64,000 bases of DNA from Candidatus Aenigmatarchaeota archaeon. Its GTDB lineage: Archaea > Aenigmatarchaeota > Aenigmatarchaeia > Aenigmatarchaeales > Aenigmatarchaeaceae. The position numbers are program-made. How positions within the stretch are numbered: the stretch's first letter is position 1; each line of letters opens with the position of its first letter. This document shows positions 24,001 through 33,000 of the stretch, piece by piece. The stretch is taken from positions 88,926 through 152,925 of the forward strand of contig JBDRJK010000019.1 in the NCBI GenBank assembly GCA_043814985.1, read 5' to 3'.

Positions 24001-27000
24001 TGCAAAGAAAATATCAAAACAGATTGTTATTGGCGTAACAGCAGTAATGGTTGTTATAATAATATTCAGCTTTGTAGGTCCTCTGTTTCTATAGAACTTT
24101 CAGTTCCTTTATGTCGCTGTTCCTTTCCAAGAACTTTCTTATGACCTTTATGTTGCATCCGCCCTTGCCGATTATGGAGCCTCGGTTTTCAGAATTCAAA
24201 ACAACAGTTGCCTTGCCGTCCTTTATCTCGATTTTCTTGGCCTTGGGTATCATGTTCTTTATGAATTCCTCGTCGTTCTCGTCCCACTCAAACACCTTTA
24301 TTGGCTTTCTGAGCATCTTCTCTGCGCTCTTGATGTTGTAGCCGTTCTTGCCTATTGTCCTGGCCATCTTCCCGGGATTAACGAGAAAATAAAGAGTGTC
24401 AGAAAAAACACAGTCCCTAATTTCAGTTCCTGTTATGTTCTCGAATGTTGCCATCAGTTTTATTGTGTCGTTGTCAAATTCTCTCATTTACTCACTATTG
24501 CTAAACTTGCTATTGCAAATGGTTTGCCGCAAAATACCCCGAGCTGTTTTGCTGTGCCGTCAAAGTTCTTGACCTCTATTCCAGAAGACTTTGCATAATG
24601 CTCTATGTCATTTCTAATGTTTTCCTGGCAGTTGTTTGCTAGTACAATTATCTTAACGTTGCCCAGCTTTAAATGTTTTATTGTTGCTTTGCTACCAATT
24701 ACAACCTTCTTCTCTTTCAATGCGTCTTTAAGCTCTTTCATTTTTATCACTTGGTTTAAACACTAGATCAAACATTCCTGTGCCAACAGGAGCGACCTGG
24801 TTTATCATTATATTCTCTATGATTGAATCTAAATGGTCAGTCTCGTTCCTTACAGCAGCCCTTGTCAGGTGCTTCATTGTTTCCTCGAAGTTTGCCCTTG
24901 CCAGTACAGAGCCCTTTGCTCCTGCGACTCCGTACCTTCCAATTGCTTTTATCATACCAACAGATGTCATCATGTCTGCTACCAATAAGACATGCCTGAC
25001 GTCAACATCCAGACCACCATCTTCCATGGTTTCCATGACAAACTCCACTATTGACTGCCTTGCAGCTTCCACGCCTAAGACCTTCAGTATCTCGTGTATG
25101 TTGTTGCATGTTGTCCTGCTTGTGTCAACGCCGTCAACCTCCAGGACCTTTGAGAGGTTGCTGCCCAAGGTTTTCAACACACATTCATCATCATTCTTCA
25201 ATATCCTGACTTCTAAAACCTTCTTCACTCCCTTTATGTGGGTATTCAGGACCTTGGCTTTTATTTTTTGCAATTGCTTTATGGAAACATCATCCTTTGG
25301 TTTTAGGAATATCTTATCTTTTGTGTCCTTTATCTTCAGACCCTTTACCTTCACGTTCTCCTCCAAGCTTTCAATGACATTCTTTATTTTCAGGTTCCTT
25401 TCTTTCATGGCTTCAAAGTCTAATGGAATCTCAATTCTCATGTTTAACAAGTCAACAGCAGGCCCTGTAGATATGTCTTTCATTTTTGTTTCCTGTATTT
25501 CTCCAGCAACCTTTTGGGCCTTTTCCATTGTTTTATAACCCCTTTCCAGGTAGACTGTCATGGTGGGCGTCTTGGGAACCCTTCTCGCGTCGAATATTTC
25601 CACAAGCCTTGGCAAACCTAATGTTACCCTTATTTCAGCAGCACCTGCTATGTGGAAAGTTCTCATGGTCATCTGCGTTGCAGGCTCTGATATGCTCTGG
25701 GCTGCCACAACGCCAACAGCCTCTCCAGGCTCGTAGCAGCTCCTCTTATATAATTCTACAGTTTTTTTAATGACCTTGTTCTTCTGGGCTTCAGTAAGCT
25801 TGAACTCCTTGAAATTGCTCTTCAAGTCATCGATTATTTTCGGTGGCAGTATTTGTTGTGCTTCTTTTATATCCATAAAATCACCTTATGACAGACTGTA
25901 TGATGTACTTTAAGTCCAAAGTACCCCAGTCTGATTTTGCCGGGTCTATCTTGTCCTCGCCGGCCGTGAACTGAATTATAATATTTCTGTTGTCTATGAC
26001 ATTGTAATTGTAATCAACCTTTAAATCCTGAAGTGCGTTCATAAGTCTTCTTTCCAGATAACCGCTGTGCCTTGTTCTCAGTGATGTATCCATAAGTGAT
26101 TCTCTTCCTGACACAGCACCGAAGAAGAACTCAAAAGGATTCAGACCTGTCTTGAAGCTGTGTGATGAGAAACCATGTGCTTCTGGTGAGAGATCTCCTA
26201 CCTTGAAGTGTGAAAGCGTTCTGTTCCTGTAACCCCTATGAATCCTCTCTCCCAAAACTCTTGCCTGCCCAGTGAATGCTGACAGCTGTGTAAGGTGGGT
26301 CATTGAACCCCTTGCCCCTGACTTTATCATTGCTATCAGGCAACTGTCTTGTGCTGAACCCTTTATCAGTTTTTCCACTTCCTGTGTTGATAATGACAAC
26401 GCCTTTAGTATGTGGCTTTCCAGGCTTGCCTTTGCAGTGCTGCCTGCAAGAATCTCTATCTTGCCTTCATTGTACATTTTAATCAATTCATCAACACTGC
26501 TTTTAGACTTCTTAATTATCTTGCCCACGTCATCTATTATTCCGCTTTCCAAATCAACGTCACTGATGCCTATGGTGAAGCCGTTCTTGTCCAGGAATTT
26601 TATGCTTAGTGATGATACCCTATCTATGAACTTGTGGGCAACATCTGTGCCGAACTCCTTCTCTATGACATCAATCAGTTTTCCATGCTCAGAACTAATA
26701 GCTTTTGAGTCTATAACTCCTCTTTTTAATTCGCCGTTCTTGATAACAACATAACCATCATTCGGGCAGGTTCCCTTGACACACTTGTCGCAACCACATG
26801 CCTTTGCTTTGAATTCTACATAAAGACCCTTGGGAAGCAGAAAACTGAAAATTTCCTTTCCAGTAAACTTATTTTTCTTGGGCAAGTCTATTATCAATCC
26901 TATGTCAGACAACAGCTTGAAGGTTTCTTCCCTTGTCATTTCAACGCCCTTCTTGGTTAACAAATAGCAGCCTGTTATCAAGCCTTCCTTGCATCCAATT

Positions 27001-30000: not shown

Positions 30001-33000
30001 ATTCTTACCTCCTTCAGGATGGGATATAAAACAAAATTTACTTCTCCTGATATCTTGCCCTTCCTTCTCTTCTCTCTCAAATCATTAATTAGTTTTTTAG
30101 GATCAGATGTATAGCCTATTGGAATACCGTCCAAGTAAACATCAATGCCTTCATTGTCAAGCTTTATGGCTGCCATCAGCCTTTTTTTCTCGCTTTCTGA
30201 AAGGCCCTTTGTTATTTCTGCGAAAAGGGACAAGTGCTTTCTCAGACCAATTGTAGGACCTTCTGGTGTTTCTGACGGGCAGAACCTGTACCAGTGAGTG
30301 GGGTGCAGTTCCCTTGCTGCAAAATGTTCTTGGGTTGATGTCAATGGTGATAGAACTAATCTTAAATGGGATAATGTGTCAACGTAATTTTTCCTTTCCA
30401 ATCTTTGCGAAACTCCTGTCCTTCCTCCTATCCATGCTCCTGTTGCCATTGCAGACGCCAACTGATTTGTAACAACATTGGACTCGACAATGGTTTGGAC
30501 TGGAGGAAGCTTTCCCCTCTTGGCCATTTTCTGGTAGTTGTATTTTATTCTTGCTATCAATCCCCATCTTCCAACAAGAATTGACCTGAACAGCAACTCT
30601 AACAAATCACCGGATAACTTGATTCTCTTGTTGCCGTAATGGTCCAAGTCGTCCTTTGGTATTATTTCCAAGGAGAACTCTATTATCTTTTTCACAGCCT
30701 TCAGGATGTAGTTGGCCTTTTTCATCTTGTCCTTGGGATCCTGACCCAAGTGCGGCAGTAGGTACTTGTTGATTATCTGCTCAACCCTCTGCTTTCTGTA
30801 CTCCTTCTGCATTATCTTCAGATGCTTTCCAACAAACTCCAAGGCATCTCCTTTTGTCTGGACCTCTGTCTCGTAAAGGTTTGTATAGAATTCACTTATT
30901 ATCTTTTCATCCTCCAGACCTTCTACTATGTCCTTGTCCTTTTCCAGGCCAAGTAGTTTTAACAAAACAACTATTGGCAGCCTGCGTATGTTAGCAAATG
31001 AAATGCAAATAGAACCGTCGTTCTTCCTTTCTAAAGTATGTCTTTGAATAAAACCGTTCCTCTCAGAATTTATCCTTATCAGTTCAGTATAGTTCCCTAC
31101 ATGCTGCTCCTCAACTATCATCCTGTTAGGTGCTATTTCCTCTATTAGAACTAAAACCCTCTCAGTGCCGTTTATTATAAAGTATCCGCCGGGGTCGTCT
31201 GGATCTTCACCGGCTTCTTCCAGCTCTTCCCTTGACATCTTGCTCAAGGGACATAATTTTGACTTGACCATGATGGGCATCTCAGCGAGCAACACGCTCA
31301 CAGGTTCCTGCTCAACCTTGTTGACAATAGGTGTTGCCTCAAGATAGACAGGAGCAGTGTACGAGAAGTCCCTTAGTCTGGCTTCAATTGGTAGTATTTC
31401 CCTTATGCCGCCTTCAGCTTCTTTAACACAGGGTTTGCCAATTGTTATCTTGCCGAATTTTATCACAAGCTCTCCTATCTCTGGAACCTCGGGCTTGATT
31501 TCCTCTATCTGGTCTATTATTCCCTGCAGCCTGTTGTCAACAAACTCATTATAACTATTAATCTGGAATCTGACAAAGCCAATGTCGTTTTTAAAGGATT
31601 TTAAAATTTCATTCATGGAATCACTTCTTTTTGACAACTATCCTGTAGTATGTAGTTGATCCTGCAACTGGGGACTTTCTAAGAATCTTTAAAATATCTC
31701 CCTCTTCTGCTTCCAATTCCTTTACAGCAGGGTCGTTGGCAAGTATTTTGGGCAGTTGATTGGGTTTTATCTTCAGACTTTCAAGCAGTTCCTTTTTTTC
31801 ACTATCATCAAGAATAATGTGCTCTGGAACTAATTCATGTTTTAGAACGCTAAATTCTTTTCCCAACCCATCACCATATAGATTACTCTGACTGCAGAGT
31901 AAAACCAAGATGTATTTTCTATATAGATTTTTAAGGCTTATAAAGCTTACTATTTTAAGGCTTTTTACCTTCTTTTCCTAGTCTTGGTTTTTTTGACAGT
32001 TCTTTTAGCCTTCCTAACAGGCTTTCTTCTTGGTTTTGGCTTTACTCTTCTCTCTACAACCCTTAGTTCAACTGGTCTTGATGGAGTAGCTGGAAAATAT
32101 ATCTGTATAGCCACGCTTAAGATTGACACTGCAACCAAAAACATGCCAAAAGAAATTGCTACTGGACTTAATGGGTTTAAAAATACTATTACTATCCCTA
32201 TTGCGAAGAGTATTATAGTCAAAATCAATGTCCCTATATTCATAAGTCTATATTTGGAAAAACGTGCTTAAAAGGTTTTCTCTCTTGCCTTTAACGACTT
32301 GAATAGTTCTAAGGCCTTAAGCGATTCGTTTCTAACATCAAGGGGTATTTTCTCTTGGTTCAGCTCTTCTGATGAAAACCATGCAAAATCCTTTAATTCT
32401 GTTGTATTGGTAGATATGCTCTCTGGATTTTTCGGGACGCATAAATAGAAAAGGCAACAGTGGTTGTGATCTCCTACATTATGAACATTGACATAGAAAG
32501 GTACGGCAAGCTGTTCTACTATATTGCCTTCAATAGGAAGGTCATTCCTGTTTAATATCTCTATCTCAAGCCCCAGTTCTTCCTTGAGCTCCCTTTTACA
32601 GCGTCGTCCGGAGTCTCGTTTTCTTCCATGTGTCCTCCGGGAGGCAGCCACTTGTCCAGTTTTTTGTGATGAATCAAAAGAACTTTGTTTTCATTTATTA
32701 CGTAAGCTGCGATGACCAAATCATTTTTCATATAATCAAAATTAGCATTAATAGCTTAAAATCATTGTGGGCCCAGAGGGATTCGAACCCTCGACCTATC
32801 GGTTAAGAGCCGATCGCTCTACCAACTGAGCTATGGGCCCGTTAAATAAGAAATAAGAATTACATTTTATAAAATTACTTCTTTCTGTTCTTCTTCAAAA
32901 TGCTCTTCCATGCCCAATTGAAAATCCTCAATTTAGAAGAAGGATAGCCGCAGTGAGAACATTTCTTCTTTCTTATATGGTAGGTGTGCTTCCCGCATCT

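Follow-up and report, generated by a model that had tools for sequence, protein, structure and literature searches.

In a member of the archaeal phylum Aenigmatarchaeota, the second-largest subunit of RNA polymerase (RNAP), B or Rpo2, and the N-terminal part of the largest subunit, A′ or Rpo1N, lie one behind the other in a single uninterrupted reading frame. From the sequence of the gene and its relatives, this in-frame rpoB–rpoA′ fusion is very likely translated as one polypeptide of 1911 residues that acts as both core subunits of the polymerase, with A″, H and the small subunits remaining separate. To our knowledge, a joining of the two largest RNAP subunits has until now been recorded in a small number of bacteria alone. 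The literature searched yielded no account of a B–A′ fusion in archaea, including the accessible parts of PMC5484517, 10.64898/2026.06.17.729505, PMC13473441 and 10.1101/2025.05.02.651781, although bioRxiv supplements may contain RNAP alignments. We rate the archaeal fusion as new, but as the same kind of rearrangement as the known bacterial β–β′ fusion.

Organization of the fused gene

The gene lies within a window of 64,000 nucleotides, the whole stretch of DNA that was analysed, along which all coordinates are counted. The relevant features, in the order of transcription, are:

31621..31908, minus strand: rpoH (Rpo5/H), first gene of the RNAP operon (Pfam RNA_pol_Rpb5_C, E 3.3e-30)
25881..31616, minus strand: fused rpoB–rpoA′, 1911 codons plus stop, an open frame with Rpb2_1-7 followed by Rpb1_1-5 (Pfam)
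28362..31616, minus strand: B (Rpo2) part, aa 1-1085, with Rpb2_1 to Rpb2_7 at aa 14-1083 (Pfam)
28356..28361, minus strand: junction codons AAA (Lys1086) and CTG (Leu1087), from comparison of the DNA with relatives
25881..28355, minus strand: A′ (Rpo1N) part, aa 1088-1911 plus stop, with Rpb1_1-4 and positions 1-66 of Rpb1_5 (Pfam)
24728..25876, minus strand: rpoA″ (Rpo1C), a gene of its own, with Rpb1_5 positions 67-263 (E 1.9e-51)
24484..24750, minus strand: ribosomal protein of the L30e/L7Ae family, operon neighbour (Pfam PF01248, E 1.2e-16)
24089..24487, minus strand: NusA-like KH-domain protein, operon neighbour (Pfam KH_2 and KH_5)

The frame runs without interruption from the ATG at 31616 to the stop codon at 25881-25883, and an upstream TTG offers an alternative start that would yield 1918 aa. 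It is tightly packed within its operon: the rpoH stop is 4 nt upstream of its ATG, and the rpoA″ ATG 4 nt downstream of its stop. All seven Rpb2 domains are recovered above the Pfam cut-offs and in order, as expected of subunit B. This part is unsplit and colinear with the B″ and B′ genes of relatives, with a B″|B′ boundary matching that of locus L065. Its translation contains the GDKF..RHGQK motif and, in Rpb2_7, the four-cysteine zinc site of the clamp ('CKKCG...CPVCDG'), in which, across an alignment of 54 sequences (A1), C17, C20 and C35 never vary and C38 shows at least 90% conservation. Rpb1_1, 2, 3, 4 and positions 1-66 of Rpb1_5 follow at aa ~1088-1889, with the catalytic NADFDGD motif ('YNADFDGDEMNLH') present in the translation and the rest of domain 5 in rpoA″, the division typical of A′. 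What this A′ lacks is a start codon and a free N-terminus of its own: no stop precedes it, and the ATG is replaced by CTG. Across the genome (808 kb in 21 contigs, 91% complete) there is one match to Rpb2_6 and one to Rpb1_2, both within the fused frame, which thus holds the sole copy of each subunit. The frame, the domain order and these sole copies bear out the first-pass annotation, which had described a complete B joined to A′ in one open frame with only A″ separate.

The junction in DNA and in structure

The same annotation had placed a two-residue gap between the subunits. Such a gap exists between the Pfam envelopes, but at the true junction Lys1086 is followed directly by Leu1087, the AAA codon occupying the place of the stop codon of unfused relatives and the CTG that of the A′ ATG. 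The colinear DNA reads 'GGT TAA ATG ATA' in genome G014, 'GGA AAA ATG ATT' in G004 and 'GGA AAA CTG GTA' in the gene studied here. In genus g56 an ATGA overlap corresponds to an in-frame junction 4 nt longer, and in genus g64 'TAA G ATG' corresponds to 'GAA GAA ATG'. Fusion started from rpoB and rpoA′ genes which, in this phylum, abut without a real spacer (TAA-ATG, ATGA overlap or 1-nt gap). In the lineage of the present gene the stop codon changed from TAA to AAA, after which the redundant ATG of A′ drifted to CTG, whereas in other lineages a short indel removed an ATGA overlap or a 1-nt spacer. The fusion added no linker: the spacing between conserved anchors has the same median of 48 nt in fused loci of the phylum (range 42-54, n=53) and in unfused loci with the genes in different frames (n=50).

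An error of assembly or sequencing at the stop codon, or a decaying pseudogene, might be suspected in a metagenome assembly with a low word depth at the locus, about 4-6. However, three sequencing runs, drawn from two studies, have contigs that cover the junction codons 28356-28361 with zero differences and zero gaps: X1, which may be the source sample, X2 from a different sample and X3 from a different study. No RNA run is among those listed as containing this DNA. Moreover, the fusion is found in 63 species genomes and is kept across whole clades at 57-94% identity, and the frame has its catalytic motifs intact and encodes two essential subunits of which the genome has no other copy. The chance of an artefact is accordingly negligible, and this explanation is effectively refuted, in agreement with the earlier view that the fusion is not an assembly slip.

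The best PDB sequence match is 3qqc_A (E 6e-62), in an alignment that continues through the junction; the best matches are archaeal B and A′, and bacterial β matches only weakly (E ~1e-13). An AlphaFold2 model of aa 1014-1407 has pLDDT values of 90, 85 and 91 in three 10-residue blocks around the junction (fragment mean 75). It places two consecutive strands, 64-71 and 74-82, on either side of a 2-residue turn, a putative hairpin read from the secondary-structure string of the model. The top Foldseek match of the model is again 3qqc_A (TM 0.72/0.75, rmsd 3.7 Å, 363 columns). This chain is an engineered fusion of Pyrococcus furiosus B 1053-1115, A′ 3-318 and A″ 334-371, and this clamp folded, bound Spt4/5 and crystallised (PMC3094117). 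It is partly shown that the last β-strand of B adjoins the first β-strand of A′ in the clamp; with these strands as neighbours, fusion would merely close a tight turn, making a linker unnecessary. The fusion most likely ties B lastingly to A′ at a fixed 1:1 ratio, a tether that abutting genes and adjacent termini would together have made possible; clamp and active centre would then assemble inside one molecule.

A fused frame could still supply the cell with separate B and A′, through a protease acting at the junction or an internal start for A′. A methionine does persist at the former start in 3 of the 11 fused members of the clade to which the present gene belongs and in many of the shorter fused forms described below, but the ATG has been lost in the other 8, including the present gene with its CTG (Leu), and without a stop codon translation can never release B. 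The junction residues vary (KGKL, KGSL, NGRK, IGRL, SGKM, EEM and others) with no conserved cleavage motif, and the modelled junction, a 2-residue turn between strands at pLDDT 85-91, exposes no linker. We therefore consider separate subunits improbable and favour a single working polypeptide.

Distribution and repeated origin

A junction query matches 345 of 371 genomes of the phylum. Counted among the matches listed, 63 of the 371 are fused, with a full-length match free of stops, and another 44 give a full-length match with 1-2 in-frame stops; the earlier count (63, about 45 and 344 matching) is thereby reproduced. The fused genomes fall into two forms, as had been reported: 15 with the entire B joined to A′, and 48 in which B′ alone is joined to A′, the B″|B′ split site lying between Rpb2_3 and Rpb2_4. 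The B′–A′ form would carry both catalytic halves (Rpb2_6, and Rpb1_2 with NADFDGD) on one chain, with B″ and A″ separate. Translation confirmed 53 distinct fused loci. A protein search with the junction region recovered 558 proteins at E<=1e-40. Among the matches listed (120 of the 558), all cover 97-100% of the query, again as in the earlier search; 27 are of 1909-1928 aa, 88 of 1420-1461 aa and 5 of other lengths, and the named organisms are Aenigmatarchaeota/Aenigmarchaeota, bar one 'Woesearchaeota' and one 'archaeon'.

Within the phylum, family f16 is uniformly fused (19 of 19 listed genomes give single uninterrupted matches), and fused and unfused species occur together in genera g56 (2 of 11 fused), g64 (2 of 9 fused), g37 and g88, a mix that argues against a strong functional need. 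According to the first-pass annotation, the two genes of sister lineages share a frame and are separated by a stop codon. This is true of some, but most of the unfused relatives sampled have them in different frames, with an ATGA overlap or a 1-nt spacer. Whether the in-frame stops might allow leaky read-through was also considered. The idea was dropped, since each of the three stop codons is represented and only 44 of the 282 matching unfused genomes of the phylum are in frame, below the one in three expected by chance. Two apparent long-linker fusions (G020 and G034) have 7 and 6 stops upon translation in spacers of 189 and 327 nt and are not fused, and G132 was dropped as its junction is a run of N. 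At least one member of the phylum, G228, has A′ and A″ re-fused.

The fusion is widespread in Aenigmatarchaeota, as the first-pass annotation had indicated, but is not strictly confined to them, since 1 of 42 genomes of a neighbouring phylum is fused, independently of those in Aenigmatarchaeota. It is absent from 802 sampled genomes of two other DPANN phyla, in 110 of which rpoB and rpoA′ share one frame. Among 80 loci, those titled Micrarchaeota, Hadesarchaea, Halobacteriales, Marine Group IV, Parvarchaeota and Nanohalarchaeota all have in-frame stops. One 'Micrarchaeota' entry (L044) is mislabelled, being identical to a genome of the phylum (G026), as is a fused 'Heimdallarchaeota' contig (L077/G375), which nests among Aenigmatarchaeota sequences and is thus likely a bin contaminant. 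In a library of representative proteins, the junction is spanned among the best 150 hits only by P0004, P0053 and the short P0005 (153 aa) and P0017 (902 aa), a result that is no proof of absence elsewhere, as a fused protein may go unseen when clustering at 50% identity leaves it behind an unfused representative. P0053 is an archaeal-type protein of 2214 aa that unites B, A′ and A″ in one polypeptide; its nearest relatives are only Aenigmatarchaeota fused proteins, at 32% identity, and no coding locus for it was found in the genome contigs or viral contigs searched.

Trees point to about ten gains and a few losses of the fusion rather than one event. A FastTree phylogeny of 155 rows requires at least 13 changes (by parsimony 10-11 gains and 2-3 losses), and an IQ-TREE phylogeny of 82 rows requires 10, of which well supported branches make at least 8 unavoidable. 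These numbers are estimates, as the trees were inferred from the B and A′ sequences themselves and the unfused genomes with the genes in different frames were sampled in full for families f1-f8 and f15 only.

Such recurrence raises the prospect that selection actively favours the fusion in Aenigmatarchaeota, for instance because it secures 1:1 assembly of clamp and active centre in cells that are very small, grow slowly and depend on a host. The excess of gains over losses, the uniformly fused families, and the 63 fused against 44 stop-split genomes, set beside none fused among the 110 one-frame genomes of the other two DPANN phyla, lend themselves to this reading. However, mutational bias accounts equally well for the excess of gains, stop loss being one step and re-splitting requiring both a stop and a start. 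Spacers are longer in other phyla (66-81 nt in neighbouring phyla versus 48 nt), where fusion would add a floppy linker. Furthermore, related genomes are not independent samples, fused and unfused species live side by side within four genera, and Helicobacter pylori reportedly remains viable when its β and β′ are separated by experiment. Selection is hence conceivable but doubtful, and the selective value of the fusion is probably small. Were the fusions selected, ultra-small symbiotic cells would have in covalent tethering a general solution to the assembly of their polymerase, and the natural fusions would then provide templates, already made, from which to build single-chain archaeal or eukaryote-like RNA polymerases.

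Comparison with known polymerases and implications

Textbooks, marker-gene pipelines and deep phylogeny all treat the subunit make-up of archaeal RNAP as a stable character, and deep phylogeny uses the A′/A″ and B′/B″ splits as rare genomic changes. One in six species genomes of this phylum has the two largest subunits joined, through many independent events, and these boundaries are therefore far less stable than assumed. The roughly ten B–A′ gains, the B′–A′ form, the A′–A″ re-fusion in G228 and the three-part P0053 might even hint that core subunit boundaries toggle freely in this lineage, drifting towards a single-chain enzyme, a notion we entertain only tentatively. Single-chain two-barrel RNAPs, such as prophage YonO and the crAss-like phage RNAP, resemble the B′–A′ form in uniting both catalytic double-psi β-barrels in a single polypeptide, but are minimal and highly divergent, whereas the Aenigmatarchaeota enzyme has every standard domain of a full cellular polymerase.

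The closest counterpart, as first proposed, is the bacterial rpoB–rpoC (β–β′) fusion of Helicobacteraceae and Wolbachia, and the likeness in order and junction is upheld. In both, a single frame with no intervening stop encodes first the second-largest subunit and then the largest, the β/B C-terminus is joined to the β′/A′ N-terminus, and the fusion arose between adjacent or overlapping genes. The Aenigmatarchaeota enzyme differs in being of the archaeal/eukaryotic type, with A′ alone fused and A″ separate, and in having a second form, B′–A′, and about ten origins in one phylum. The fused protein would be like the β–β′ fusion in its working, yet it is outside the bacterial β/β′ sequence families. 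A synthetic Escherichia coli β–β′ fusion differs in being both bacterial and artificial. The known archaeal splits and re-fusions (B″/B′, A′/A″ and the secondary A′–A″ fusion of Pacearchaeota) also shift RNAP boundaries by gene fission and fusion but stay within one subunit, whereas B–A′ joins two different ones; the accessible part of PMC5484517 terms RNAP subunit splits and fusions rare and names only A-subunit splits and one secondary fusion. In the P. furiosus rClamp (PDB 3QQC; Martinez-Rucobo et al. 2011, PMC3094117), the C-terminal region of B is likewise joined to the A′ N-terminus by a short link, but that construct is man-made, comprises the clamp domain only, uses Gly/Ala/Ser linkers, includes an extra A″ piece and is not a working polymerase.

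The natural fusions reveal which junctions nature tolerates, the same junction having been picked for the engineered clamp in 2011, and are a source of single-chain constructs for structural studies and reconstitution. Whether tethering helps assembly could emerge from a comparison of close relatives with and without the fusion. Public annotation labels the fused proteins merely 'subunit A′' or 'subunit B', and such labels can corrupt orthologue sets and the inference of gene loss.

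The fused gene and its operon

The B–A′ gene occupies a stretch of the RNA polymerase (RNAP) operon with the following members:

24728–25876 (−): A″ gene, carrying Rpb1_5 positions 67–263, next after the fused gene
25881–31616 (−): fused B–A′ gene of 1911 aa in a single open frame, ATG at 31616, stop at 25881–25883
31621–31908 (−): rpoH, the gene preceding the fused gene
Downstream of A″: genes for L30e and a NusA-like KH protein

This is the ordinary archaeal RNAP arrangement minus one gene boundary. Pfam domains Rpb2_1 to Rpb2_7 span aa 14–1083 of the protein, followed by Rpb1_1, 2, 3, 4 and positions 1–66 of Rpb1_5 up to aa 1889, and the 1911-aa translation retains in full the catalytic motif NADFDGD as well as GDKF..RHGQK. 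The 808-kb genome (21 contigs, 91% complete) yields one Rpb2_6 and one Rpb1_2 match, each within the fused frame; hence this gene is the cell's sole source of B and A′. Elsewhere in the window, 33840–35660 (+) encodes a 606-aa histidine kinase with 7TM, PAS, HisKA and HATPase domains, in a genome of only 808 kb, and GC content drops to 0.283 at 34–36 kb.

The junction: loss of the stop codon and structural context

Junction codons are identical and gap-free in contigs of three public runs, representing a possible source sample, a second sample and another study. Together with the wide recurrence of the fusion, this agreement bears out the view of the first-pass annotation that no assembly slip is involved. 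Junctions of relatives were compared by translation and by reading the DNA; that of the window is colinear between fused and unfused relatives, with zero indels.

Codons at the B/A′ junction
G014, unfused, same family: GGT TAA ATG ATA
G004, fused: GGA AAA ATG ATT
Window, fused: GGA AAA CTG GTA

Lys1086 thus occupies the position of the relatives' stop codon and Leu1087 that of their A′ start, and the fusion arose by mutation where the two genes abut. The former ATG is gone in 8 of the 11 fused members of the window's clade, as expected if A′ lacks its own translation start. Sequence comparison indicates that other lineages reached the fused state through different small mutations: unfused species of genus g56 have an ATGA stop/start overlap, and its two fused species are in frame with a junction 4 nt longer, while in genus g64 'TAA G ATG' became 'GAA GAA ATG' in the fused form.

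A PDB sequence search with aa 950–1250 placed 3qqc_A at the top, with an unbroken alignment over the junction (E 6e-62). This entry, according to the accessible text of its report, is a recombinant P. furiosus clamp joining B 1053–1115, A′ 3–318 and A″ 334–371 by short Gly/Ala/Ser linkers, which folds, binds Spt4/5 and gave a crystal structure at 3.3 Å (PMC3094117). An AlphaFold2 model of aa 1014–1407, made from an alignment of 54 fused sequences (A1), had a mean pLDDT of 75 and a pTM of 0.75, with 90/85/91 for the junction-flanking blocks. B's final strand (64–71) and A′'s first strand (74–82) are separated in it by a two-residue turn, and their predicted positions suggest a hairpin. Foldseek with the model again ranked 3qqc_A first (TM 0.72/0.75, rmsd 3.7 Å over 363 columns), and the junction is compatible with the native clamp fold. 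Nature has therefore arrived several times at the link that crystallographers built by design in 2011.

Distribution, independent origins and possible selection

A query of aa 980–1200 was searched against all 371 species genomes of Aenigmatarchaeota, and states were counted from the rows listed. It matched 345 of these, 63 with a stop-free, full-length single match, 44 with a full-length match containing 1–2 in-frame stops, and the remaining 238 with partial or two-piece matches. The 63 fused genomes comprise 15 with an unsplit B (frames to 1941 aa) and 48 with B′–A′ (about 1420–1500 aa), in agreement with the earlier claim of a fusion recurring across the phylum in two forms. In one B′–A′ genome (locus L065) the gene order is B″ (494 aa, Rpb2_1–3), B′–A′ (1446 aa) and A″. 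A junction protein search recovered 558 proteins at E<=1e-40, with the junction spanned in all 120 matches listed; public labels for fused proteins are merely 'subunit A′' or 'subunit B'. Three record titles are misleading: locus L044, titled 'Micrarchaeota', is identical to the in-phylum genome G026; L077/G375 is a 2.5-Mb 'Heimdallarchaeota' bin with a fused contig of Aenigmatarchaeota type; and the fused protein P0293 carries a 'Woesearchaeota' label.

Junction-spanning matches outside the phylum (only such matches were taken in, and a fused gene interrupted by a lengthy insertion would escape)
Phylum of the record titled Micrarchaeota: 401 genomes sampled; 67 matches, all with 1–3 in-frame stops, one from G404, flagged as an unpublished genome; 0 fused
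Phylum of the record titled Parvarchaeota: 401 genomes sampled; 43 matches, all with stops; 0 fused
Phylum of the record titled Nanohalarchaeota: all 42 genomes; 12 matches, 11 with stops; 1 fused (G1192)

The 1426-aa frame of G1192 is a separate origin of the fusion, since 'ENESGGNM' at its junction lines up colinearly with 'EN*SGNNM' in the unfused G1194, and the tree places G1192 with its own phylum (support 99).

Altogether 194 loci from tblastn were classified by junction state. Before tree building, 43 rows were dropped as identical duplicates and 7 as short, along with G132, which is N-masked; in this genome (L169, contig G132:C1) a 1395-aa frame runs across B′ and A′, and its junction consists of Ns, through either masking or a gap in the assembly. 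Trees were built on the B and A′ sequences themselves. FastTree on 143 rows (53 fused, 50 other-frame, 40 in-frame stop) and 943 columns, excluding the junction region, required 12 changes between fused and unfused states, and well supported branches force 11 of these; when labels were shuffled the mean was 43, and none of 500 shuffles was as low as 12. Adding neighbouring-phylum rows (155 in all) gave 13 changes, which outgroup rooting resolved into 10–11 gains and 2–3 losses, and IQ-TREE (LG+G4) on 82 rows gave 10, at least 8 of them forced. Other-frame genomes were sampled in full only for families f1–f8 and f15, and extra unfused rows cannot reduce these counts. The window's clade holds 11 rows, all fused (genera g1, g3, g5 and g11; support 100), with the unfused G020 as sister.

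Spacing between conserved anchors flanking the B/A′ boundary
Aenigmatarchaeota, fused: 53 loci, median 48 nt, range 42–54 nt
Aenigmatarchaeota, other frame: 50 loci, median 48 nt, range 38–91 nt
Aenigmatarchaeota, in-frame stop: 26 loci, median 51 nt, range 42–351 nt
Neighbouring phyla, unfused: 25 loci, group medians 66–81 nt, range 57–90 nt

The boundary is therefore compact in Aenigmatarchaeota, so that stop loss brings no linker; the sole fused neighbouring-phylum genome has 51 nt, the shortest spacing of its group.

We infer that the fused product stays uncleaved and works as a tethered B–A′; tethering would fix B and A′ at a 1:1 stoichiometry and would put the clamp and the active centre together inside a single molecule. 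Selection may have favoured the fusion in Aenigmatarchaeota. Gains outnumber losses, and among the junction-spanning matches of the Micrarchaeota- and Parvarchaeota-titled phyla no fusion was found despite 110 same-frame arrangements in 802 sampled genomes, both of which speak for selection. However, fused and unfused species stand side by side within genera, and mutational bias plus the compact boundary could account for the pattern.

Known fusions and related subunit architectures

One frame, sole copy and recurrence establish the fusion as real, and the first-pass interpretation holds, including its likening to bacterial β–β′. Among natural systems, the β–β′ fusion described for Helicobacteraceae and Wolbachia (PMC7483510) comes nearest. 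A synthetic β–β′ fusion in E. coli is reported as functional in the available part of a preprint (bioRxiv 10.1101/2021.11.05.467461). Archaeal RNAP splits and fusions are regarded as rare, with A-subunit events only being listed in the portion available of PMC5484517, and a B–A′ fusion goes unmentioned in the accessible part of a 2026 preprint about insertions in B″ of DPANN RNAP. We found no description of an archaeal B–A′ fusion in the literature searched, which reached neither subscription journals nor preprint supplements. The event is of a type already known, here in a new archaeal form, and gains in interest from the B′–A′ chimera and from its unusually many independent origins.

At the B″|B′ boundary of split relatives, L065:1500–1545 ('...KYVGG* MIDVFLDG') is colinear with the window's unsplit B ('...KLDNEGIDVYLDG'), the matching site being aa ~480–495 of the fused protein (about 30130–30180). 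A split B is said to hold for most DPANN in the available part of the 2026 preprint; were it ancestral, the 1911-aa protein would be the outcome of two successive fusions.

Further joins were also observed. Locus L095 (G228:C18), from a phylum member of family f25, has a B of 1099 aa, then a single TAG in frame, and after it an A of at least 1122 aa that is not split and holds Rpb1_5 positions 1–258 without a break; by its domain content this is an A′–A″ fusion within Aenigmatarchaeota, and a full B–A chain would need the loss of one stop codon. P0053, a 2214-aa singleton of archaeal type from an 18.7-kb Logan contig, has B (Rpb2_1–7), A′ and A″ in one chain, in which Rpb1_5 runs in full as far as aa 2162. 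P0053 aligns colinearly with the window's fused protein across about 1900 columns (26% identity), and no locus for it was found in the genome-contig or viral-contig collections searched. Finally, in the library protein P0006 (455 aa), Rpb2_7, which is B's C-terminal domain, occurs as three tandem stretches.
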